NCBI GenBank assembly: GCA_038040455.1
Contig: JBBPIH010000032.1
Location: forward strand, 254-64,253
DNA length: 64,000 nucleotides
Source: Acidobacteriota bacterium
GTDB taxonomy: Bacteria > Acidobacteriota > Blastocatellia > UBA7656
Reading direction: 5' to 3'
Below, piece by piece: positions 3,330 to 61,753 of this stretch; position 1 is the stretch's first letter; every line of letters begins with the position of its first letter. The notes under the pieces were generated by a model. The model had not been told where the DNA came from. It did not search any database and was given only the letters and a program-made list of their open reading frames with translations. A program made the translations under genes and the position numbers.

Positions 3330-3465
3330 CAACGTATGCTAGATTGTAAACGGCTGTTGTACAAATCATTCTATTCTTAGTATGGGTGCCCCTCGATCAA
3401 GGCTAGAGGCACACCAAAAAGAAAAGGCAGCCGTTTAGCCGCCCCGTAATCTCCTGATTCTAAAG

Positions 3466-3539
3466 TACGCCCGGCACGACTCGAACGTGCGACCTCTTGC
3501 TTCGTAGGCAAGCGCTCTATCCAGCTGAGCTACGGGCGC
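3466..3539 (-). tRNA. tRNA-Arg (anticodon ACG)
   Basis: The reverse complement GCGCCCGTAGCTCAGCTGGATAGAGCGCTTGCCTACGAAGCAAGAGGTCGCACGTTCGAGTCGTGCCGGGCGTA folds as a 74-nt cloverleaf. It has a 7-bp acceptor, GCTC/GAGC D stem, CTTGC/GCAAG anticodon stem with loop CTACGAA, and GCACG/CGTGC T stem with TTCGAGT loop. CCA is not encoded. Confidence 0.95.
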
Positions 3540-3748
3540 GTAAGCGGAACTGATTGCTAATGCACCGTTGGTACTCAGCGATTATTGCAAGGCTCGCAAA
3601 GAGTGTCAACGAAGCGTGATTCGCGAAACGTGATGCGTGATCCGTGTAGCGTGAAGGTTGTCCTGCCTGTGACAAACAATGAGTGATTTAGCGGGCGCGC
3701 GATCAACCGAAGTTGCGCGCGAGGGTTTGTGGTGATAGACAGTTCGCG

Positions 3749-10904: not shown

Positions 10905-10980
10905 CGTTGCACCCGCTTTACCGAGTCGAGGCGTTGAGCCTTAGCATCCTAGCACGGCACTACTTTCACAACCAAAGTGC

Positions 10981-11187
10981 AATGGAGTTCAGGGTTCAGG
11001 GTTCAGAGTTCAGGGTTCAGGGTTCAGAGTTCAGGGTTCAGGGTTCAGGGTTCAGGGTTCAGGGTTCAGAGTTCAGGGGATGCAGTTGTTGACTAGATTT
11101 ACACACCGACCCAGGAACGCCAAACGTTCAACCCTGAACCCTGAACCCTGAACCCTGAACCCTGAACTCTGAACCCTGAACTCCATT
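10981..11187. repeat. Inverted heptamer-array element (GGGTTCA/GAGTTCA type)
   Basis: Left arm 10984-11078 has about 13 tandem 7-nt units GGTTCAG/AGTTCAG. Unique centre 11079-11124. Right arm 11125-11184 has 7-8 reverse-complement units CCTGAAC/CTCTGAA. The termini AATGGAGTTCAG / CTGAACTCCATT are complementary. Located between divergent genes. Confidence 0.95.
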
Positions 11188-11239
11188 GGTTAGTGGTTCC
11201 CCCGCCGAGCGGGGCCGTGCTACACTTTCTTCCTTGCGC

Positions 11240-29017: not shown

Positions 29018-29194
29018 AGATTCTGAGTGTGCCAGCCCAGACATTTGTTATGAGTGGTGTTGTGTTCAAGCCTCACTTCGAATGGCATCACGGAGGGACG
29101 CCCGCACAGGTGAATGTTTACGCGCGCACAAACTGGACATATAATCCTCGCTCATCGTTATCAGTGGAACCCCAAAGCTGACAGGAGAACAGCA

Positions 29195-30820
29195 ATGCTA
29201 AGAACCAGAGCCTTCTTCATGATATGCGTGTCACTGCTCGGTTACGCGCCGGTACTTGCGCAAGACGCCGCAGACATCAACGCGAAGATTCGAAAAGAGG
29301 AGACGGACAACTCGCAGATCATGCGGACGATGCATTTTCTTACTGACATCCACGGTCCGCGTTTGACTGGCTCGCCGAATCTGAAAGCCGCCGGTGAATG
29401 GGCGATCAAGCAGATGACCGCCTGGGGTTTTGAGAACGGCCATCTGGAACCGTGGGACTTCGGTCACCCGGGCTGGATGAACGAACGCTTTTCGGGCTTT
29501 ATCACATCGCCGGTGAAGGACACGCTTACCTGTGAAGTGCTCGCATGGACCGCGGGCACTAATGGACCGGTGACGGCGAAGGCTTATCAGATGGTCCTTC
29601 CCGAAAAGCCCACTCAGGAAGAGTTCACTGCGTACCTTGCAACGCAGAAGGACAAAGTCAAAGGGAAGTTCGTGCTTGCGGGCAAGCATCAGATGGTCGC
29701 CGTGAATCTTACTCCGCCTCCGCGCCGGCAAGACGACAAGCAGGCGAAGGAACGCTATGATCCGAACAATCCGAACGCGGGGCAGGGTCGCAGGGGTCGC
29801 GGGCCTCAACAGGAAGACCCGGGGAAGCTGACGGCGCGGCAAATCGATGAGCAACTCGATCAGTTCCTTCTTACAAGCGGGGCATTGATAAGAGCGAACG
29901 ATGCCGGACGCGAGCATCGCCAGATTCGGGCTTTTAACAATCGCACGTTCGACGCGGCCAAGGCGCTCCCGACCGTAGTGATGAGCAACGAGGACTATGG
30001 CCGCATCTCGCGCATTCTCGCGGACGGCCAGCCTGTCGAGCTTGAGTTCAACATAGTCAATCGCTGGTACCCCGAAGGCAAAACCGCTTACAACACGATC
30101 GCCGAAATTCCGGGCACGGACAAGACAGACGAAGTAGTGATGCTTGGCGGGCATCTCGACTCGTGGCACTCGGCGACTGGAGCTACGGACAACGCGATCG
30201 GCTGCGCGGTGATGATGGAAGCCGCGCGGATTCTGAAAGCCATCGGCGTGAAGCCTCGCCGCACGATTCGAGTCGCGCTTTGGAGCGGTGAGGAGCAAGG
30301 CTTGCTCGGCTCACAGGCTTATGTGAAGGAGCACTTCGGAACGTTCGAGGAGCCGAAGCCTGAATACAACAAGCTGGCCGCTTACTTCAACATCGACTCG
30401 GGGACGGGACGCGCGCGCGGCGCAAGCGTGTTCGGACCACCGGAGGCCGCAGCGATCGTGCGCGCAGCACTTGCGCCGTTCGAAGACGTTGGCGTGATGG
30501 GAGCGATTCCGTCTAAGAGCCGCGCGCTCGGCGGCACGGACAGCACTTCGTTCAGTCAGGCGGGCCTTGCCGGTATCGGGATAGGGCAGGACCCGATCGA
30601 ATACAATTCAGCTACGTGGCACACGAACCTGGACACCTACGAACGGATCATCTTAGACGACGCGAGGAAGGCAGCGATAGCGATTGCCGCTGCCGTGTAT
30701 CAGCTTGCGATGCGGGATGAGCTGCTTCCGCGCTTCAGCAAGGAGAACATGCCGCCGCTTCCGCCGAAGCCCGGCACACCCGCGACTCCAACACCGCAGG
30801 CGCCGCCCGGGAACAACTGA
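29195..30820 (+). CDS. M28 family metallopeptidase (aminopeptidase-like), secreted
   Basis: ATG 29195 after AGGAGA gives [23 protein letters not shown]. Zinc-site region [30 protein letters not shown] and [15 protein letters not shown]. Confidence 0.85.
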
Positions 30821-30826
30821 ACCTAC

Positions 30827-31083
30827 GGTTCAGAGTTCAGGGTTCAGAGTTCAGGGTTCAGAGTTCAGGGTTCAGGGTTCAGAGTACAAGCTTTAGCTTG
30901 CTACGGAGAGCAACCTAAAGGTTGTACTCTGAACCAGAAACCAGAAACCAGAAACCAGAAACCAGCAACCAGCAACCAGCAACCAGCAACCAGCAACCAG
31001 CAACCAGCAACCAGCAACCCTGAACCCTGAACCCTGAACCCTGAACCCTGAACCCTGAACCCTGAACCCTGAACTCGGAACCC
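30827..31083. repeat. Inverted heptamer-array element, asymmetric and multi-unit
   Basis: Left arm: 8 units GGTTCAG/AGTTCAG (30827-30882). Centre 30881-30930 has the small hairpins CAAGCT-TT-AGCTTG and CAACC-TAAA-GGTTG. Right arm: (AACCAGA)x4, (AACCAGC)x8, (AACCCTG)x7. The element fills the spacer between stop 30820 and ATG 31089. Confidence 0.95.
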
Positions 31084-31088
31084 TTTTT

Positions 31089-31547
31089 ATGAGCGAGATC
31101 AAACGAATCAACGACCAACTCAAGCGGGCGTTTGAAGGTAAGGCGTGGCACGGGCCGTCTGTCTCTGAAGTACTGGCGGGCGTCACTGCCGAGCAAGCGG
31201 CCGCGCATTCGATCCCGGGCGCGCACAGCATCTGGGAGCTTACTCTGCACATCGCTACATGGGAGCGCGTAGGCCGCAGGCGGGTAGAAGAATCGGATCC
31301 AATCGACGTCTCGGACGAAGAAGACTGGCCGGCAGTTGAAGACACGAGCGACGGGGCATGGCAAAACGCGCTTGAAGAACTCCGGCGCAACCACGAAACC
31401 CTCCGCGCAGCGATCAGGGGGCTAGATGAAGCGCGGCTTGAGGAGATCGTGCCTGGCACGCAGTACTCGATCTACTTCCTTTTACACGGCGTGATTCAGC
31501 ACGACCTTTATCACGCGGGGCAGATCGCGCTGTTGAAGAAAGCGTGA
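31089..31547 (+). CDS. DinB family protein
   Basis: 152 aa. AWHGPSVSEVL ... HSIWELTLHIATWE ... LLHGVIQHDLYHAGQIALLKK (DinB-type His triad context). Confidence 0.8.
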   Translation: MSEIKRINDQLKRAFEGKAWHGPSVSEVLAGVTAEQAAAHSIPGAHSIWELTLHIATWERVGRRRVEESDPIDVSDEEDWPAVEDTSDGAWQNALEELRRNHETLRAAIRGLDEARLEEIVPGTQYSIYFLLHGVIQHDLYHAGQIALLKKA

Positions 31548-36163: not shown

Positions 36164-38128
36164 ATGAAAAGGGCTTTGGTTTGTACATTGATCGCGGCGA
36201 TGGCGGCGTGCACAACGAAGACGACGGAACAGACAATGAACAACTCGGGTGACAAGGAGTTCAAGAAGATTCACGACGTTTACGTCGTTGAATTCCTGCG
36301 TCGCAACCCGACGGTCAACACCTATCTCGGCGGCGCCGGGCTCGACCCCTCCTTGCGCGATGTCGATGGTACGCTGCGGGATCACTCGGCCGCGGCGCTT
36401 GCAGCCGAAGACCGCTGGCTCGCAGAAACCGAGAAGGCTTTCCAGAACATCGACCCTAACACTCTTTCGGCAAGCCTGCGCATAGACCGCGACGTCGCGC
36501 TCGCTCAGATTCGGTTCCTGCTCCATCAGCATCAGGTGCGCCGTTATCAGGAGCGCGCGCTCGATACCTACACCGATGAGCCCTTTCGCGCGGTCGACTG
36601 GCAATTGCAAGGGATGACTCAAACCGGCGAGAAGACCTACGGCACCGCTGATGAGTGGTCGCTCGTGGCCAAACGAGTGAGCGTGATCCCGCAGTTTCTT
36701 GCCGTCGCTCAGGAGCAACTGCTCGCCGGTGTGAAGTCGAACAACGCGCCCGACTTTCGAGTGCTCAAACGCAACGGCCTGGATACGTCAGCAGCCGATG
36801 CGAAGTATTTTGAAGAGACTCTACCAAAATTGGCGGAAGAGCGGATCGCCGGAGCCCAGCGCGATCAGTTGCTCGCTCAGGTTCGCGACGCCTCGAAACA
36901 GGCCGCTGAAGCCTATCGCAAACTGGCCGGGTTTGTGACGAACACTTTCTTCGACTCGGGTAATGCTGCCAGAACGGTGAAGAAAGAATTCGCCGGCGAT
37001 CGATTTGCGATGGGGGAAACCGAGTACGACTGGGCGCTCAAGAACAACTTTCACATCGATAAGACTGCGGCGCAGCTTTACGACGAGGCGTGGCCGATCG
37101 TCGAAGCTACCCAGAAAGAGATGATCGAGCTGGCTCGCGAGATCGGAAAGTCGCACGGGTGGACCCTTCCCGCCGAAGGCCCGGCTGCAGTGCGCGCCGT
37201 CTTCGATGAATTGTCAAAAGACTACCCCAAGTCCGACGCCGAGATGGTCTCGTGGTATCGGGATGCGGCATTTCGATTGGTCGACTACGCGCGCAAGACA
37301 GGAATCTTCGACGTGCCTGGTGACTACAAGCTCGAAGTGGTCGAGACTCCGCCGCCGCTGCGAGCTTCAATCGACGGCGCGGCCTACTATCCGGCGCCTC
37401 CGTTCAAGACGACGGGTGTCGGCCGGTTCTACGTGACGCCTACGGACAACGACCCTGCTGCTTTGAAATCGAACAATCGTTCAGCGCTCGCAGACCTGTC
37501 GGCGCACGAAGGCTTCCCCGGCCACGATTGGTATTACAAAGTCATGACTCAGTACAAAGATCAAATCGGTGAGGTTCGCTGGCTGACACCGGGGGCGGTT
37601 GAAGATTCATCGTCGATGTGGGAAGACTCGATGTCGGCGGAAGGATGGGGGCTGTATGCCGAAGCCTTGATGGCTGAGCCGCAGCCCGGCGCGCCTCAAG
37701 GGGCCTACGCACCTGAAGAAAGACTCTACCAGTTGCAGGGCAAGCTCTATCGCGATCTGCGAGTTCGCGTCGACACGGGCATTCACACCGGCCGGATGAG
37801 CTACGACGATGCGGTCGATCTGTTCTCGCAGGTGGTCGATTTTCTTCCGGGCTCCTGCCGCGATACGTCGGCGACCGCGAAGGACGATAAGCGAGCAAGC
37901 TGCAAGTCGGCCGAGGGCGCTATCTTTCGTTATTCGAAGTGGCCGACGCAGGCAATCACTTATCGCCTCGGCAAAGACCAGATCTACGCCTTGCGGGAAG
38001 AAGCGTCGAAACTCCTGGGTGATCGGTTCTCGGCCAAAACATTTCACCTTCTCTTCATCAAGCAGGGCACCATCCCCGCGGGATATTTTCGCGATGAGTT
38101 GCTGCGCGAGCTTCGCGAGACGAAATGA
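36164..38128 (+). CDS. DUF885 family lipoprotein
   Basis: Lipobox MKRALVCTLIAAMAAC. HEGFPGHDWYYK motif. Size of 654 aa is typical for DUF885. Confidence 0.75.
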   Translation: MKRALVCTLIAAMAACTTKTTEQTMNNSGDKEFKKIHDVYVVEFLRRNPTVNTYLGGAGLDPSLRDVDGTLRDHSAAALAAEDRWLAETEKAFQNIDPNTLSASLRIDRDVALAQIRFLLHQHQVRRYQERALDTYTDEPFRAVDWQLQGMTQTGEKTYGTADEWSLVAKRVSVIPQFLAVAQEQLLAGVKSNNAPDFRVLKRNGLDTSAADAKYFEETLPKLAEERIAGAQRDQLLAQVRDASKQAAEAYRKLAGFVTNTFFDSGNAARTVKKEFAGDRFAMGETEYDWALKNNFHIDKTAAQLYDEAWPIVEATQKEMIELAREIGKSHGWTLPAEGPAAVRAVFDELSKDYPKSDAEMVSWYRDAAFRLVDYARKTGIFDVPGDYKLEVVETPPPLRASIDGAAYYPAPPFKTTGVGRFYVTPTDNDPAALKSNNRSALADLSAHEGFPGHDWYYKVMTQYKDQIGEVRWLTPGAVEDSSSMWEDSMSAEGWGLYAEALMAEPQPGAPQGAYAPEERLYQLQGKLYRDLRVRVDTGIHTGRMSYDDAVDLFSQVVDFLPGSCRDTSATAKDDKRASCKSAEGAIFRYSKWPTQAITYRLGKDQIYALREEASKLLGDRFSAKTFHLLFIKQGTIPAGYFRDELLRELRETK

Positions 38129-38129
38129 G

Positions 38130-38412
38130 AAGTGATGCGTGAAGCGTGAAACGGGATGCGTGGCTCGTGATGCGTGAAACTGTTTGGGAAGGCCCTATGT
38201 GAAGGATCACAAGTGGGGAAGGGAGGCTTTGCCCCGCTCCTTGAAAAGTCTCCTCTACCAAGACAAGAGCGGGGGTAAACCACCCTTCCAGACCTGTGAT
38301 CCTTTCGCAGTAACTTGAAACTTCATCTTCACGCATAACGCATCACGCGCGTCACGATCACGCATCCCGCATCACGAATCACGTTTCGTTTCACGTGTTA
38401 CGCATCACGCAT
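38130..38412. repeat. Composite element: degenerate ACGCATC-type heptamer arms around a nested 99-bp palindrome
   Basis: Left arm GAAGTGATGCGTGAAGCGTGAAACGGGATGCGTGGCTCGTGATGCGTGAAAC. Nested palindrome 38204-38302 (GGATCACAAGTGGGGAAGGGAGGCTTTGCCCCGCTCCTTG ... CAAGAGCGGGGGTAAACCACCCTTCCAGACCTGTGATCC). Right arm CACGCATAACGCATCACGCGCGTCACGATCACGCATCCCGCATCACGAATCACG... Confidence 0.9.
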
Positions 38413-38417
38413 TTCTT

Positions 38418-40331
38418 ATGGCCATGCATTTCTCTTTCGGCCCCGCCAGTCCCGGCAATGAGCGGCCAACGCTTCACGAACGGTTCGCTGCGCTCCGCTA
38501 CATCCCTCCACTGATCAAGCTCGTGTGGGAGACGCATCGCGGCTACACGACGGCGATGGCGCTGCTGCGTCTGCTGCGAGCCGGCATTCCGGTAGCGATG
38601 CTCTGGGTCGGCAAGCTGATCATCGACGCAGTGGTTGCTTCGCGCGAATCATCTCCGGACTTCGCAAGGCTGTGGAAACTCGTCGCTCTTGAAGTCGTCA
38701 TCGTGACTGCGAACGATGTTCTTGCAAGAGCGTCGTCGCTGGTTGAAAGCTTGCTGGGCGACCTCTTCTCAAACCACACAAGCGTGCGATTGATGGAGCA
38801 TGCTGCCACGCTCGACCTTTCGCACTTCGAAGACCCGGCATTCTACGATCATCTCGAACGCGCGCGGCGGCAGACGACCAGCCGCATAGGGTTGCTGGCG
38901 CAGCTTCTGGCGATCGGGCAAGACGGCCTCACGTTGATATCGTTGGGCGCGGCGCTGATAGTGTACAGCCCGTGGCTTTTGCTGCTGCTTGCGGTCGCAG
39001 TGCTGCCGAGCTTTTTCGGTGAGACTCACTTCGCGTCCCTGGAATATTCGATGCAGTTTCGGTGGACGCCCGAGCGAAGACAGCTCGACTATCTGCGCTA
39101 TGTCGCCGCGAGCGATAGAACCGCGAAAGAAGTGCAGCTATTCGGACTGTCGCCGTGGCTGATCGAGCGGTTCCGCAAACTATCCTGGAGGTTCTACGAC
39201 GAGAACAAGAAGCTCTCGGTTCGCAAAGCGTATGTCAGCACGGCTCTGTCGCTGATAGGGACGCTTGGCTACTACAGCGCGTACGTAATCATACTAGCGC
39301 GTGCGGTGAACGGTGTAATCTCGATCGGCGAGCTGACCTTTATAGCCGGGTCGTTCGCGCGAAGCCGAGGATTGATCCAGGGACTGTTGATGGGCGCGGG
39401 CGGAATTTATCAACAGTGTCTCTACCTTAAGGACCTCTTCGATTTCTTTGATATGAAACCGTCGATCGCTTCGCCGCCGGGCGCGCCGTCGGTGCCGCGG
39501 CCCATCCGTGAAGGGTTTCTGTTCGAGGACATCGGCTTTCGCTATCCCGGGAGCGAGGCGTGGGCGGTGCGGCACGTGAGCTTCACGTTGCGTCCCGGCG
39601 AGCGCATTGCGTTCGTCGGTGAGAACGGCGCGGGCAAGACTACGCTCACCAAGCTGCTGGCGAGGCTTTATGATCCAACCGAAGGGCGCATCTTGCTGGA
39701 CGGAGTCGACCTTCGCGAGTATGACATTCATTCCGTGCGCCGCGCGATCGGGGTGATCTTTCAAGACTTCGTCAAATACGATTTGCGCTTCGACGAGAAC
39801 GTTGGCGTAGGGGAGATCGAGGAAGTGCGGTCATATCTCGACGCTTCCAGTGCCGGCGAACAAGAGCGCGACTCAAGTGCGGAGGCTGACGGCAACGGCG
39901 CAGTGCCCGGCGCGATTGTTTCCGCATCTGAGAAGTCGCAGGCCTCCTCGTTACTGCCGCGATTCGAAAAAGGCTACAAACAGATGCTCGGCCGGCGTTT
40001 CGACGAGGGGGTCGAGCTGTCGGGCGGCGAGTGGCAGAAGATCGCGCTCGCCCGCGCTTACATGCGCGACGCGCAGGTGTTGATTCTGGACGAGCCGACG
40101 GCTTCGCTCGATGCACGCGCCGAGTATGAAGTCTTTATACGATTTTCGAAGCTGGTAGCGGGAAGGATGGCGGTGATTATCTCGCACCGCTTCTCGACGG
40201 TGAGGATGGCCGACAGAATCATTGTTCTTCAGAACGGAACGGTTGTCGAAGACGGCTCGCACGCCGAGTTGGTCGCCGCCGGCGGGTTATACGGTGAACT
40301 TTTCGCGCTGCAGGCGGAAGGGTATCGATAG
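38418..40331 (+). CDS. ABC exporter, fused permease/ATPase (MsbA-like half transporter)
   Basis: N-terminal 6-TM region. Walker A GENGAGKTT, Q-loop IGVIFQDF, signature LSGGEWQKIALARA, Walker B VLILDEPT, H-loop IISHR. A low-complexity stretch of about 35-40 aa sits between the Q-loop and the signature. Confidence 0.85.
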   Translation: MAMHFSFGPASPGNERPTLHERFAALRYIPPLIKLVWETHRGYTTAMALLRLLRAGIPVAMLWVGKLIIDAVVASRESSPDFARLWKLVALEVVIVTANDVLARASSLVESLLGDLFSNHTSVRLMEHAATLDLSHFEDPAFYDHLERARRQTTSRIGLLAQLLAIGQDGLTLISLGAALIVYSPWLLLLLAVAVLPSFFGETHFASLEYSMQFRWTPERRQLDYLRYVAASDRTAKEVQLFGLSPWLIERFRKLSWRFYDENKKLSVRKAYVSTALSLIGTLGYYSAYVIILARAVNGVISIGELTFIAGSFARSRGLIQGLLMGAGGIYQQCLYLKDLFDFFDMKPSIASPPGAPSVPRPIREGFLFEDIGFRYPGSEAWAVRHVSFTLRPGERIAFVGENGAGKTTLTKLLARLYDPTEGRILLDGVDLREYDIHSVRRAIGVIFQDFVKYDLRFDENVGVGEIEEVRSYLDASSAGEQERDSSAEADGNGAVPGAIVSASEKSQASSLLPRFEKGYKQMLGRRFDEGVELSGGEWQKIALARAYMRDAQVLILDEPTASLDARAEYEVFIRFSKLVAGRMAVIISHRFSTVRMADRIIVLQNGTVVEDGSHAELVAAGGLYGELFALQAEGYR

Positions 40332-40347
40332 CTTGGCGCATCACCGG

Positions 40348-40965
40348 CTAGCGTTGCGCTCGCGAGGGGGTTCGCTGGGTCAGGTGAGGAAGGAATTTGT
40401 TCAGGACGCGATAACCTAATAACACCGCCACCGCAACGCCAAACAAGACCGGCTCGCGAGTGTCGGCCTTAACGAGCATGTAGTAGTGAATTACCCCGCC
40501 AATTGCCGCGACGTAAGCTAGCCAGTGCAGCCGATTCCATCGCTTCCCGCCCAACCGCTTGATGCTCCTTTGAGTTGAAGTCAGAGCAAGCGGCACCAGT
40601 ATCACAAAGCTAGCCATTCCTACGGTGATGAATGGGCGCTTGACGATGTCTTCGCCGATGAGCCGGAACCCGAAAAACTTATCGAACCAGACGTAGGTCA
40701 GCAGATGCAGGCAGCCGTAGAAGAACCCGTACAGGCCAAGCAAGCGGCGGAACTTGATCATCCAGGGCAGCCCGAGCGTTTTGCGAAACGGCGTGACGGC
40801 AAGCGAGAGTATCAAGAACAGCAGGGTCAGAACGCCGGTCGTGCGAGTGGCGAATTCAGTGGGGTTCGCGCCAAGGCGGTGGTGATACCAGTCCCAACCA
40901 AGCAGCGAAAGCGGCACCGCGCTGCTGATGAAAATCACGAGTTGTGCGAAGCGAGTGTCTTTCAT
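40348..40965 (-). CDS. msrQ: Protein-methionine-sulfoxide reductase heme-binding subunit MsrQ (YedZ)
   Basis: 205-aa polytopic membrane protein with conserved His-containing helices (CLHLLTYVW, VIHYYMLVK). Downstream of msrP on the same strand. Confidence 0.8.
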   Translation of the reverse strand: MKDTRFAQLVIFISSAVPLSLLGWDWYHHRLGANPTEFATRTTGVLTLLFLILSLAVTPFRKTLGLPWMIKFRRLLGLYGFFYGCLHLLTYVWFDKFFGFRLIGEDIVKRPFITVGMASFVILVPLALTSTQRSIKRLGGKRWNRLHWLAYVAAIGGVIHYYMLVKADTREPVLFGVAVAVLLGYRVLNKFLPHLTQRTPSRAQR

Positions 40966-40970
40966 GCAAA

Positions 40971-41196
40971 TTTCGTGATGGGTGATGCCTCATTCGTGAA
41001 GCTCAAGGTCTAAGCTACCGTACCAGGATCACAGGTCGGGAAGGGTGGTTTACCCCCGCTCCTTGTACAGCCAACTCTGCCAAAGTCGAAAGACAAGAGC
41101 GGGGGTAAACCACCCTTCCCGACCGTGATCCTACCTATGGATCCTACCCAAACAGTTTCATGCATCACGGATTACGCATCACGATCAACGCATTAC
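40971..41196. repeat. Second copy of the composite element (opposite orientation to 38130-38412), inserted between msrP and msrQ
   Basis: Nested palindrome 41026-41131, with the right half nearly identical to that of copy 1 (AAGACAAGAGCGGGGGTAAACCACCCTTCC). Degenerate heptamer flanks TTTCGTGATGGGTGATGCC... and ...CATGCATCACGGATTACGCATCACGATCAACGCATTAC. The marker CCCAAACAGTTTC (41147-41159) is the reverse complement of GAAACTGTTTGGG (38176-38188). Confidence 0.9.
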
Positions 41197-41197
41197 T

Positions 41198-42169
41198 TCA
41201 ATAGTACTTCTTCAAATCCAGCCCGCTGTAAAGCTGCGCGACCTGCTCCCCGTAGCCATTGAACATCAACGTGTCTCTCAAGCCGAACTCACCGATGCGC
41301 CGCTCGCGGGCCTGGCTCCATCGAGGATGATCTACCTGCGGATTGACGTTTGAGTAGAAGCCGTATTCGCTCGGGCCCGCGATGTTCCAGGTAGTCGGCG
41401 GCTCGTCTTCAACGAGCTTTATTCTCACGATCGACTTGAGCCCTTTGAAGCCGTACTTCCACGGCACAACCAATCTAAGCGGCGCGCCGTTTTGAGGCGG
41501 AAGCGTTTCGCCGTACAGCCCGCTCGCGAGAATCGTCAGCGGATGCATCGCTTCATCCAATCGCAGTCCTTCGACGTACGGCCACTCAAGAACGTCCGAG
41601 GTCACGTTTGGCATCTGTTTCGGATCAGCGAGCGATTCAAACGCGACGTACTTCGCTTGTGACATCGGCTGCACTTGATCCAGGAGCGTGGCCAGCGGAA
41701 AGCCGACCCACGGAATCACCATTGACCACGCCTCGACGCAGCGAAGGCGATACACGCGCTCTTCGGGAGGGCTGATCTTCAACAGGTCGTCGATATCAAA
41801 AACGCGCGGCTGGTGAACGAGCCCCTCGACCACAACCGTCCACGGGCGAGTCACAAATCGTTTGGCCTTATCCGCGACCGCGCGCTTATCGGTCGAGAAC
41901 TCGTAGAAGTTGTTGTAGTGGGTTATGTCTTCATAGGACGTCTGCTTCTCGTCCAGCGTCTGAGCCACCGCCGGGGGAGGTTGCACGCTGGCGATCTTTT
42001 CTCCTGCCTGCGATTCTTCACTGTGACTTGTGAAGCGGCGGTAGACGAGTCCGGTAGCAGCCATTGTGCCCGCCAGTGCTGCGCCGCGGATGAACAGGCG
42101 CCGGGTCAGGTACAAATTCTTGCCGGTGATCTCGCTGCTTTTAATGTCTTCAGGTTTCTTGATCAACAT
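41198..42169 (-). CDS. msrP: Protein-methionine-sulfoxide reductase catalytic subunit MsrP (YedY), molybdopterin enzyme with Tat signal
   Basis: Tat motif [79 protein letters not shown] and VDHPRWSQ closely match E. coli MsrP as I remember it. Confidence 0.92.
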
Positions 42170-43627: not shown

Positions 43628-43634
43628 GAAAGAT

Positions 43635-43848
43635 GGTTTCGGGGTTCAGGGTTCGGGGTTCGGGGTTCAGGGTTCAGGGTTCAGGGTTCAGGGTTCAGGG
43701 TTCGGGTTCAGGTTCAGGGTTTACCTAATCGACGTATTACTCGAGGGAACTGGGACCTCCAAACGCTGAACCACGAACCAGGAAACTGAACTCGGAACCC
43801 TGAACTCTGAACCCTGAACCCGGAACTCTGAACCCTGAACTCGGAACC
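43635..43848. repeat. Inverted heptamer-array element (GGGTTCA/GGGTTCG type)
   Basis: Left arm 43635-43721 (GGTTTCGGGGTTCAGGGTTCGGGGTTCGGGGTTCAGGGTTCAGGG...). Unique centre. Right arm 43766-43848 (CTGAACCACGAACCAGGAAACTGAACTCGGAACCCTGAACTCTGAACCCTGAACCC...). Fills the spacer between two minus-strand genes. Confidence 0.95.
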
Positions 43849-43857
43849 GTTGACCCG

Positions 43858-44739
43858 CTATTGAATCAGCTTGATCGAAGACTTCGACTTCTCGACAAGC
43901 GTGCCTTCGCGCGGCTGCAGTTTTTCGCCTTCTCCCTTTGGAAGTGTGTTTGAGAGACGGCCTTCGATCGAAGTTTCGGTTGTTGCAGCAATGATGCGGC
44001 TTGCGGCCACGTCGTACTCGATTATGGTTCTGCCGTTCCCCGCCGCTATCACGCCTACGTCAATTCGGGCGTCCTTCGTTGTCAGCAATGAAGTCCCGCT
44101 CTGGTTCAGTGTGATTGCGCCTTCAATTAACGCTTTGGAACCATTTACCGATGATAGCTTGTAAGCGATTGTCGCGCGCTTTGTGATCTCGCCAATGGGT
44201 GTCGCAGAGATGTATTCAAAATTGCCTGCGAGGTTCTCACCGCCCGAGCCTTGTCCCCACGTCTGCCCGACGGCAACTTCGCCCGGCGGCGCCCACCTCC
44301 CCAGGCTGAATATCACCTGGGCCAGCCCTGTTTCGCTTACCGTTTCCGGAAGCGAGACTTTCATAACCTTGTCCTCTGAATCCAACTGGTATTCGATCTT
44401 CCGCCCAGCAAGAGAGGCGTCGGCGGTTGGTCTATCGACTCCGTCAACAGTCGTGCGAGTAGTAATCGCTTCGATGACCGCTTCATTAGTCAAATCGCCT
44501 TTCTCGCTGACAAGTGCCCGAATCACTACGGTTGCGACTGTCTCTCGATGCACATTGCTCGCGATGCCGTTCGAGCCCGTCGGAGTGACGTGCGTGTCAA
44601 CCGATCCGTTGATGAGGTAGCGATACTCCTGACCCGGCTTGAACACCGGCCTTAGCGACACGCGGCCCACCTGCGCACTCGCGGTTATCACTGTTGTCGT
44701 AACAAGCAAAATCGAAATGATGTTGGTTTTAGCGGTCAT
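43858..44739 (-). CDS. Hypothetical secreted protein
   Basis: ATG 44739 after GGAGA gives MTAKTNIISILLVTTTVITASAQ (signal peptide). The sequence looks beta-rich. The track's longer start (44895) overlaps the upstream gene. Confidence 0.6.
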   Translation of the reverse strand: MTAKTNIISILLVTTTVITASAQVGRVSLRPVFKPGQEYRYLINGSVDTHVTPTGSNGIASNVHRETVATVVIRALVSEKGDLTNEAVIEAITTRTTVDGVDRPTADASLAGRKIEYQLDSEDKVMKVSLPETVSETGLAQVIFSLGRWAPPGEVAVGQTWGQGSGGENLAGNFEYISATPIGEITKRATIAYKLSSVNGSKALIEGAITLNQSGTSLLTTKDARIDVGVIAAGNGRTIIEYDVAASRIIAATTETSIEGRLSNTLPKGEGEKLQPREGTLVEKSKSSIKLIQ

Positions 44740-56984: not shown

Positions 56985-57019
56985 GGCAGTTCCTCCCTTA
57001 AGAAAAGACGTAGTCCATC

Positions 57020-57133
57020 CATTCTTCATTTGTCATTTGTCATAATTATCATTTCAATTTTGAGTGCCCGCAATAAATGGCCTATGACAAATCAAAAATG
57101 ACAAATGACAAATGGAAAATGGAAAATGACATG
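57020..57133. repeat. Inverted heptamer-array element (TTTGTCA / TGACAAA type, AT-rich)
   Basis: Left arm is CATTCTTCATTTGTCATTTGTCATAATTATCATTTCAATTTT. Right arm is ATGACAAATCAAAAATGACAAATGACAAATGGAAAATGGAAAATGACATG. Confidence 0.9.
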
Positions 57134-61627: not shown

Positions 61628-61753
61628 CCATTTATGATTTGCAATTTTCCGTTTGTCATTTGTCATTTGCCATCGCTGGAAGCGCGCCAAACAACAAAGA
61701 GAACAATGAAAAATGACATATGGAAAATATGGAAAATCGAAAATGGAAAATTG
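61628..61753. repeat. Inverted heptamer-array element (TTTGTCA / GGAAAAT type)
   Basis: Left arm is CCATTTATGATTTGCAATTTTCCGTTTGTCATTTGTCATTTGCCAT. Right arm is ATGAAAAATGACATATGGAAAATATGGAAAATCGAAAATGGAAAATTGG. Confidence 0.85.

Follow-up and report, generated by a model that had tools for sequence, protein, structure and literature searches.

Mirrored heptamer arrays in an acidobacterial contig

A 64,000-nucleotide stretch of contig JBBPIH010000032.1, from a soil Acidobacteriota bacterium and referred to here at its full length as the window, carries three intergenic elements, A (10981-11188), B (30824-31088) and C (43632-43849), that share one layout: a tandem array (GGGTTCA/GAGTTCA)n, a unique centre and the reverse-complement array (TGAACCC)m. 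The window has a G+C content of about 57.5% and only 7 GCGATCGC sites; the genes around A, B and C are ordinary chromosomal genes, and homologues of the M28 peptidase encoded next to B are named Blastocatellia (Acidobacteriota). A cyanobacterial origin was rejected on the base composition, these sites and these homologues. The initial annotation had recognised one shared design at these three loci, and direct reading, Tandem Repeats Finder and arm pairing all bear it out. Our focus is element B, and the parts of the three elements are listed below.

Element B, 30824-31088, between the M28 peptidase gene (29114-30820) and the co-directional DinB_2 gene
30827-30885, + strand: G-rich arm, 8 units, GGTTCAG and AGTTCAG alternating, beginning 6 bases past the peptidase stop codon
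30886-30931, + strand: centre, with a small hairpin of its own (GAGTACAAGCTTTAG...CTAAAGGTTGTACTC), conserved in the orthologous element of locus L124
30932-31015, + strand: one-sided block, (AACCAGA)x4 (AACCAGC)x8, without a left-arm partner; an 84-base bulge
31016-31084, + strand: C-rich arm, TGAACCC x7 plus variants
30827-30893 with 31016-31082: pairing part of the arms, 67 nt, 90% complementary
Element A, 10981-11188, between the divergent genes for a PD40 propeller protein and DusB
10985-11078, + strand: G-rich arm, 13 units, 21-base super-unit GAGTTCA GGGTTCA GGGTTCA (97% matches)
11079-11121: unique centre, with no words common to the other centres except unit-derived ones
11122-11188, + strand: C-rich arm, TGAACCC/TGAACTC, about 8 units
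10980-11065 with 11103-11188: pairing part of the arms, 86 nt, 84% complementary
Element C, 43632-43849, between the genes for a 293-residue protein and then a HAD hydrolase, co-directional on the - strand
43638-43721, + strand: G-rich arm, GGGTTCA/GGGTTCG, 12 units
43722-43774: unique centre
43775-43848, + strand: C-rich arm, GAACCCT/GAACTCT/GAACCCG/GAACTCG units, about 10
43638-43709 with 43775-43846: pairing part of the arms, 72 nt, 83% complementary

Tandem Repeats Finder places period-7 arrays on both sides of each centre (A: 10985-11078, 13 units, and 11130-11181, 7.4 units; B: 30827-30885, 8.3 units, and 30932-31019 plus 31016-31084, 12.6 and 9.9 units; C: 43638-43721, 12.3 units, and 43786-43848, 9 units), together with 14- and 21-base super-periods. 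A single array detector run over the whole window found seven arrays of period 7 and none of periods 5, 6, 8, 9, 10 or 11; the same detector found no array in 100 second-order Markov simulations of the window. Unit counts in B (GGGTTCA x4, GAGTTCA x3, AACCAGA x4, AACCAGC x8, TGAACCC x7, TGAACTC x1) match the earlier statement that two further heptamers, (AACCAGA)x4 and (AACCAGC)x8, have been amplified there. In A, the inverted repeat reaches 4-5 bases past the arrays (AATGGAG...CTCCATT). Four further mirror elements built from unrelated heptamers (D, D2, E and F, described in the last section) bring the total to 7 in 64 kb, or about one per 9 kb, and all but A (6 of 7) lie between co-directional genes.

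The elements had also been described as filling their spacers almost to the flanking codons. This holds for B and C, whose flanking stop and start codons are only 6-10 bases off: B ends in a T5 run (31084-31088) that is followed by the DinB_2 ATG at 31089, and C stands 10 bases off the HAD hydrolase start codon (43627, - strand) on the left and, on the right, 9 bases off the stop (43858-43860, - strand) that closes the gene for the 293-residue protein (P0121). It does not hold for A, which leaves 76 bases to where the left-hand gene starts (10904) and 52 to the dusB ATG (11240). At the left edge of B, the peptidase stop codon sits in a lone reverse-orientation unit (cTGAACCtacGGTTCAg, 30815-30832), as it does in locus L131 (4130-4150), and the arrays may have been seeded by the 6-bp mini-palindrome of cTGAACCtacGGTTCAg.

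The unit numbers given for the window are those of the assembly. Contigs from 7 other short-read runs, whose flanking genes are 100% identical, enter the same first units and then break; on these contigs, together with arrays at the same junctions in relatives, an artefact of one assembly was rejected. In practical terms, mirror elements break short-read assemblies at gene junctions. One such contig, L209 (1330-1377, against 43780-43848 of the window, - strand), comes from the same strain in another run and has one GGTTCAG unit fewer near its end; we do not count it as strain-level unit polymorphism, as contig ends inside repeats are unreliable and an assembly-graph effect is possible.

Folded as RNA, A, B, C and D each give one long imperfect hairpin (A, -139.6 kcal/mol, z -13.6; B, -133 kcal/mol, z -13.9; C, - strand, -123.9 kcal/mol, z -11.0; D, -141.8 kcal/mol, z -11.8), and the proposal that the arms can pair with each other thus stands on stable folds, with z from -11 to -14. 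The ensemble of B is diffuse, its centroid structure keeping the centre hairpin only, because many 7-base registers are possible. Promoter and terminator scans of A, B and C gave no match, the terminator scan taking only loops of 3-8 and at most 20 pairs. A T run follows B and most of its orthologues, and none follows A or C.

A G-quadruplex, the other structure that had been proposed for the arms, fares less evenly. By the canonical motif (G3+, loops 1-7), at least one arm of each element fits the consensus, A on both strands, C on the + strand and B on the - strand only (31018-31069); the left arm of B, in which GAG and GGG alternate on the + strand, fails the G3-N1-7 motif. Four of the five merged canonical motif regions in the window fall within the arms of A, B and C. 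G4Hunter scores are borderline for pure arrays (about 1.2-1.3) and reach 2.16 in the G-rich arm of C. Among the 10 orthologous copies of B with clear mirrored arrays, which are described in the next section, the G3 motif is retained in 2 and a strong hairpin in all 10; a G3 or G4 tract per unit is absent from the other 8, as well as from the window's other unit families. The G-quadruplex is thus not the conserved property, and since G tracts are not what is kept, the G-quadruplex reading is only partly supported.

Persistence, birth and loss at gene junctions

Relatives that keep the peptidase-DinB order make it possible to trace one junction over time. Scanning metagenomes with the peptidase returned 80 loci, 16 of which keep that order; with L124 and the window this makes 18 junctions, 17 of them with a spacer. 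Of these 17, 10 hold clear mirrored arrays (the spacers of the window, L124, L131, L134, L135, L136, L137, L139, L143 and, in degenerate form, L130), weak array remnants are present in L127 and L138, and L128, L129, L133 and L140 have unrelated spacer sequence. L126 has no spacer, the peptidase stop and the DinB start overlapping as ATGA. Spacers with mirrored arrays measure 122-295 bases, orthologues carrying arrays fold with z from -5 to -17, and the flanking proteins of relatives sharing the site are 83-90% identical.

At this kept site, the units themselves turn over. Unit types vary from one lineage to another (GGTTCAG, GGTTCCG, GGTTTCT, GGTTCGG and AGTTCGT, with a separate GAACGTC-type in L137), and unit number and type differ at every orthologous junction. 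L124 and the window have the centre hairpin and the (AACCAGA)4 block in common while their arms otherwise differ: in L124 the block has a left-arm mirror copy, TCTGGTT, and the outer units are CCGGGTT/AACCCGG, not GGGTTCA/TGAACCC. In L124, in L131 and in L214, the last of these at the junction of element C, unit variants run in mirrored order in both arms; the 53-nt arms of L214 are 91% complementary over four unit types. The initial annotation had read the unequal arms as slipped-strand expansion, a view that the orthologous turnover, the 14- and 21-base super-periods and the AACCAGA x4 and AACCAGC x8 blocks all sustain.

In a rough neighbour-joining tree of the peptidase, every major branch of the syntenic group, the deepest included, has mirror elements, and the overlap allele of L126 is nested among these. 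From this distribution, the element at the peptidase-DinB junction is probably old, and has been lost or replaced several times. At the same junction, L129 (4130-4628) has a spacer of 499 bases in which a GCCCTCCTGACGG-type motif occurs three times, and L128 (4148-4242) and L140 (1498-1602) have a REP-like hairpin, GGGGCGGTCCTCAGTGGCCGCCCC (REP, repetitive extragenic palindrome); various structured inserts seem to be drawn to this junction. Most orthologues also have, between the right arm and the DinB start, a T run followed by a conserved TTTCGCGGAGCGAAA-CC-ATG (e.g., L124 4890-4915), in which the small hairpin of TTTCGCGGAGCGAAA, with GGAG in its loop region, is probably the ribosome-binding site. 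The window is without those approximately 17 bases; its right arm meets the DinB start directly (CCCTTTTTATG, 31080-31091) and there is no recognisable Shine-Dalgarno sequence.

At the junction of element C, L212 (TAGTG) and L213 (TAATG) have no spacer, L214 and L215 have a 195-base mirror element, and L211 and the window's own strain also have arrays. A comparison of flanking sequences brought out other sites where some alleles have an element and others lack it; L147 and L193 are element-free alleles with an overlapping ATGA. The clearest case is an apparent birth preserved in L166 (5386-5478), where a C-rich array starts as an exact copy of the last 7 bases of a gene, stop codon included, and runs to the ATG of the next gene through the series ATTCTGA, ATTCTGA, ATTCGGA, ATTCCTA, ATCCCTA, GACCCTA, ACCCCTA; at the same site, L148, L161 and L175 have spacers of 13-24 bases. 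Because the array copies the gene end and then drifts, towards units of CCCTAAC/CCCTAGA type, L166 is, read from its sequence, direct evidence of seeding from local sequence followed by slippage.

The GGGTTCA-family elements do not resemble insertions of a conserved body. Forty centres of GGGTTCA-family elements, compared with one another, have nothing in common but unit-derived words, and no common end sequence, which argues against a mobile element with a conserved body; CCAAACG, common to the centres of A and C, does not recur, and we discarded it as a conserved centre of that kind. Flanking-base duplications are seen at L214 (TAA...TAATG) and at B (TGA...ATGA), where they are also demanded simply by keeping the stop and start codons, and none is visible at C or A. 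The units are 7 bases long and contiguous, with no spacers, which sets them apart from CRISPR arrays, whose direct repeats of 23-47 bases alternate with unique spacers of about that length; the arms are variable tandem heptamers around unique centres, not the palindromes of REPs, bacterial interspersed mosaic elements (BIMEs) or REPINs. The terminal and internal conservation of MITEs (miniature transposable elements with inverted repeats) is lacking in the GGGTTCA family, and only the GTGATGC family of D and D2 has a core common to its two copies.

Kinship and proposed origin of the arrays

The initial annotation knew of no class built from 7-nt tandem units in mirror arrangement; such mirrored heptamer arrays have, in fact, already been described in Xanthomonas (Rehm et al., 2015; PMC4692102) and in Geobacter metallireducens (Aklujkar et al., 2009; PMC2700814). 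Rehm et al. (2015) studied G-rich heptamer arrays of 2-26 copies (mode 4), GGGAATC in Xanthomonas and GGGGAYT in Nostoc, and counted 70-75 convergent inverted pairs per Xanthomonas genome, with an orientation that was "always convergent". Their arrays are intergenic, mostly between co-directional genes and rarely at divergent ones, and lie less than about 50 bases from a stop codon, in which case the sense strand is the G-rich one, or from a start codon, in which case it is the antisense strand. Between related species, unit number and sequence vary while the single-or-paired type of a site is kept; GGGAATC and GGGGAYT oligonucleotides form quadruplexes in vitro, and most Xanthomonas repeats are transcribed, with no regulatory role found (PMC4692102). 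The window's elements agree with these arrays in their 7-base tandem units, their convergent pairs on opposite strands, their intergenic position by stop and start codons and their turnover at kept sites. They differ in unit (GGGTTCA/GAGTTCA), in acidobacterial host, in arms of 8-22 units against a mode of 4, in a G3 tract that is not conserved at orthologous sites, and in the presence of several unrelated unit families in one genome.

In Geobacter metallireducens, 8 pairs of sites, each with five tandem heptanucleotides (MTYCTGA), stand on opposite strands at variable spacing, one pair between the operon genes proB and proA; other classes have 8- or 9-base units, and four GGGACCG units in tandem recur 49 times (Aklujkar et al., 2009; PMC2700814). 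Those authors viewed the sites as conserved binding sites of a global regulator and proposed IHF/HU-type binding. The Geobacter sites are short and of fixed copy number, whereas copy number and unit type vary widely here. TAACTGA arrays of up to 43 copies occur sporadically across phyla (Beggiatoaceae, cyanobacteria, Bacteroidetes), a few bases from start codons, with one inverted case among 170 Beggiatoaceae sets (MacGregor, 2015; PMC4679880). These, like the short tandemly repeated repetitive (STRR) arrays of cyanobacteria, are intergenic heptamers as in the window, but they are almost always direct, not mirrored. STRR sequences were reportedly described by Mazel and colleagues in 1990. As later papers summarise Mrazek et al. 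(2007), heptanucleotides are the commonest long simple-sequence repeats of bacteria, with polymerase slippage proposed as their origin. The reason for the 7-base unit, and for the arrays as such, is a question of more than 30 years' standing. Blastocatellia now add a lineage with dense mirror elements, whose many uncultured relatives let one junction be followed through time.

A, B and C are very probably palindromic heptanucleotide microsatellites, kin of the unit-7 long simple-sequence repeats of Xanthomonas, Geobacter and cyanobacteria. The elements are real and non-random and belong to a known, functionally unexplained kind of repeat, for which any statement of function is one that we infer. 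The architecture is already known; the unit, the host lineage, the evolutionary series, the polarity and the unit frequency are, as far as we could find, new.

REPs are unique imperfect palindromes of 20-40 bases with conserved sequence, spread by REP-associated tyrosine transposases (RAYTs), and their hairpins stabilise upstream mRNA and can attenuate transcription. The window's elements are, like the REPs, BIMEs and REPINs of proteobacteria, intergenic, often intercistronic and hairpin-forming, and REPs are co-transcribed; the window's elements differ in having variable heptamer arms, unique centres and no conserved motif. No RAYT or other transposase turned up beside the elements, although no search was aimed at transposases and the open reading frames (ORFs) of the window were not all screened. 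A second point of comparison is quasi-palindrome correction (the Ripley model, E. coli), in which an intramolecular template switch rewrites one arm of an imperfect inverted repeat to match its partner, at the DNA level and in a strand-symmetric manner. The mirrored order of variants and the absence of a wobble signature both fit such correction, but it is known as a point-mutation and short-patch process and is not known to produce symmetric growth of 60-150-base arms.

Our favoured explanation, to which we give a probability of roughly 0.55 as a whole, is that of slippage-grown, hairpin-copied palindromic microsatellites that are tolerated at operon junctions. Local sequence would seed an array, and replication slippage would extend it in a 7-base register; a second arm would arise, and stay similar, through template switching at the quasi-palindrome, in which the hairpin copies from itself, with both strands treated alike. 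The variant units standing in blocks and the 14- and 21-base super-periods argue for slippage growth, and the mirrored order of variants and lack of a wobble signature argue for the template switch. Once transcribed, the self-pairing insert would loop out of the transcript as one imperfect hairpin of 60-100 bp and leave the upstream stop and downstream start about 12-20 bases apart, which would explain how such inserts are tolerated inside operons. Side effects would be those of any long intercistronic hairpin, namely a target for RNase III, an obstacle to 3' exonucleases and, if the hairpin leads into a U run as in B, partial termination; the G-quadruplex potential would be a by-product of GGG-containing units. 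Among the parts of this explanation, growth in place by slippage is likely and DNA-level upkeep of the arms has about an even chance, while any specific selected function is unlikely at best.

Mismatches in the arms bear on that upkeep, because selection on the sense RNA would leave arm mismatches mostly as G·U on the sense strand. In the arms of 14 elements between co-directional genes, Watson-Crick pairs number 755; read on the sense RNA, 28 mismatches are G·U and 40 are A·C (the latter being G·U on the antisense strand only), a difference at p ~0.18 in a small sample whose orthologous copies are not independent. The lack of a G·U excess on the sense strand favours, at the level of sequence, a strand-symmetric, DNA-level cause of arm complementarity. 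Taken together, the persistence of the site with turnover of its units, the mirrored variant order, the unconserved G tracts and the missing wobble signature speak for a DNA-level process and against a G-quadruplex switch.

Two simple, testable handles on mechanism are the polarity of the pairs and the frequency of the unit. Across all the DNA retrieved, 48 inverted heptamer pairs were collected (about 37 of them independent), and in 45 (~94%) the G-rich arm lies 5', in line with the "always convergent" orientation in Xanthomonas. So it does in 27 of 27 GGGTTCA-type pairs, whose sources are Acidobacteriota, Planctomycetota, Lentisphaerota, Gemmatimonadota, Desulfobacterota, Gammaproteobacteria, a metagenome-assembled genome of Clostridia and an ANME-1 archaeon (examples of inverted pairs are L002 2354-2510, L017 4718-4827, L109 3222-3382 and L222 4196-4381; exceptions to the G-first order include L042 6077-6207, L181 230-421 and, judged by eye, L147 2374-2470). 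Single GGGTTCA arrays direct their G-rich strand away from the nearest gene in a ratio of 39:13, and upstream of start codons their sense strand is C-rich in a ratio of 17:3, both ratios and the gene configurations resting on a crude ORF picker. G-richness probably matters only negatively, G-rich arrays being disfavoured in the sense strand directly before start codons, and such avoidance of G-rich leaders explains the polarity in three of four gene configurations.

Exact (GGGTTCA)4 occurs in at least 119 stretches of species-representative genomes (loci L002-L120), in diverse bacteria and one ANME-1 archaeon and often at contig ends. In viral contigs (L218-L241) there are 24 such stretches, against 4, 7, 1, 3 and 2 for five permutations of the same composition and 1 for the Xanthomonas unit, which makes (GGGTTCA)4 3-24x commoner there than the permuted controls. 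The unit consensus is RGTTYMK (189 units from ten arm pairs), its last three positions varying and GTT having served as the picking anchor. GGGTTCA is also the 5' half of a typical tRNA T-arm, GGGTTCA(AATCCC). We set aside its likeness to the T-arm, which is probably chance, and to telomere units, as neither has evidence beyond coincidence; the resemblance to the vertebrate telomere unit put forward in the initial annotation has nothing behind it beyond the letters.

A number of points weigh against our favoured explanation. The G·U comparison is small and non-independent, and the polarity counts inherit the caveat on gene calls. Pairs called between convergent genes (6 arms) are also G-first, which leader avoidance does not explain and which hints at some polar mechanism. 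Element A lies between divergent genes, where the operon argument is inapplicable, and the 84-base one-sided block of B implies that arms are not promptly homogenised. Long persistence at the peptidase-DinB junction could mean a selected function instead of self-renewal; element-free alleles could be precise deletions or the ancestral state, though the tree favours loss at the B junction. Finally, co-transcription, RNase III cleavage and termination are all inferred.

A variant of the explanation speaks to the convergent pairs: a fold-back template switch might turn a slippage-seeded array into a palindrome only when the G-rich strand is nascent. Such a polar pathway would account for the 5' position of the G-rich arm, on either strand, in ~94% of pairs across unit families and phyla, those between convergent genes included, although we hold it to be improbable. 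If true, it would have the same head-to-head geometry as fused telomere arrays and would offer bacteria a general route to new intergenic hairpins, possibly terminators or processing sites, at operon junctions; the dominance of heptamers among bacterial long simple-sequence repeats would, in addition, become experimentally tractable.

Four other explanations were weighed. The arrays might be a selected RNA device resembling REP/BIME, an intercistronic hairpin that sets differential operon expression by protecting the 3' end of the upstream cistron, attenuating read-through or offering an RNase III site, with arm complementarity kept by selection. The very stable hairpins of elements and orthologues, the T run after the right arm of B and of most orthologues, the span from stop to start between co-directional genes in 6 of 7 elements, the retention of an element at one junction through a whole clade and the transcription of most Xanthomonas counterparts (PMC4692102) all agree with such a device. 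We nevertheless consider it rather unlikely: G·U pairs are not in excess on the sense strand (28 against 40), B holds an unpaired block of 84 bases, A and C have no U run, A sits between divergent genes, the simple terminator scan was empty (though such long stems fall outside its design) and Rehm et al. found no regulatory role (PMC4692102). That the G-rich array instead folds as a G-quadruplex in DNA or RNA to regulate transcription or translation, the C-rich arm being a competitor or i-motif, strikes us as quite improbable. Four or more GGGTTCA units do fit G3N4G3N4G3N4G3, four of five motif regions in the window lie in the arms, related GGGAATC and GGGGAYT oligonucleotides fold in vitro (PMC4692102), and the strand bias (45 of 48 G-first; 17:3 C-rich sense before starts) suggests an in vivo consequence of G-richness; yet only 2 of 10 clear orthologous elements have the motif, TCTGGTT and CCGGGTT units taking over, the left arm of B fails it, pure arrays score only about 1.2-1.3 in G4Hunter, four mirror elements of the window are built from units without G runs (GTGATGC, TCATTTG), and a complementary arm 40-120 bases away favours duplex.

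Small mobile units of MITE or REPIN type, whose terminal inverted repeats would be the heptamer arrays and which a transposase would insert in trans at gene junctions, would explain why elements are there or missing at precise junctions, stop overlapping start in the alleles that lack one; they would also explain the TAA...TAA(TG) around L214, the common palindromic core of about 110 bases in the two GTGATGC-family copies of the window, and the same heptamer in many phyla and in viral contigs. This reading is very unlikely: 40 centres of the GGGTTCA family have only unit-derived words in common, the ends are not conserved, and the flanks show no consistent duplication in B, C and L124; in addition, the array of L166 arises gradually from the end of the adjoining gene, no orthologous site has the same arms (though the centre can be conserved), no transposase turned up next to elements (none was searched for), and the D core is in none of 205 loci compared, nor in viral contigs. 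Similarly remote is the idea of binding-site arrays for a protein with a 7-base register, be it a nucleoid or global regulator on DNA or a HutP-like ring on RNA that reads triplets every 7 bases. By eye the GTT core of RGTTYMK is kept among the 189 units while the last three positions vary, but GTT was also the anchor by which units were collected; two turns of the helix correspond roughly to the 21 bases of three units, a super-period that does occur; (GGGTTCA)4 exceeds its five permutations 3-24x in viral contigs; and IHF/HU-type binding was proposed for Geobacter by Aklujkar et al. (PMC2700814). There is, however, no candidate protein, three unrelated unit families have the same design in one genome, and unit types change freely at one locus.

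Further mirror elements of the window

The remaining mirror elements, and a single array, are the following.

38129-38412, + strand: element D, with a GTGATGC-type arm (38129-38180), a palindromic core (38202-38304) and a GCATCAC-type arm (38328-38412)
40975-41182, + strand: element D2, with short GTGATGC-type arms and the D core, which here holds a perfect 28-base inverted repeat (41034-41061/41097-41124)
57018-57131, + strand: element E, with a TCATTTG arm (57018-57043) and an ATGACAA/ATGGAAA arm (57083-57131)
61642-61753, + strand: element F, with a TTTGTCA arm (61642-61673) and a GAAAATG-type arm (61700-61753)
3614-3654, + strand: single GCGTGAT-type array lacking an inverted counterpart, immediately upstream of tRNA-Arg(ACG) (3465-3539, - strand)

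D occupies the spacer from the stop of a DUF885 gene (38128) to the start of an ABC transporter gene (38418), and D2 lies between MsrP-like (41198-42169, - strand) and MsrQ-like (40348-40965, - strand) genes. The two have in common a conserved palindromic core of about 110 bases (AGGATCACAGGTCGGGAAGGGTGGTTTACCCCCGCTC ... GAGCGGGGGTAAACCACCCTTCCCGACCTGTGATCCT), and the GTGATGC family, unlike the GGGTTCA family, looks on its sequence like a dispersed and possibly mobile element. The core matched nothing in the 205 loci compared or in the viral contigs. Rfam, searched at the gathering threshold over the whole window, returned tRNA-Arg only and matched none of the elements, and at up to E = 1 it had no match in the region 38050-41300.

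E sits between the stop of a HupE/UreJ gene (57148, - strand) and the start of an NHL-repeat gene (56984, - strand); F is downstream of an NHL-repeat gene (stop 61611, + strand) and upstream of an aminotransferase gene. Their TCATTTG/CAAATGA family is A+T-rich with no G/C skew, and thus outside the rule that the G-rich arm comes first; in both copies, it is the T-rich arm that leads.

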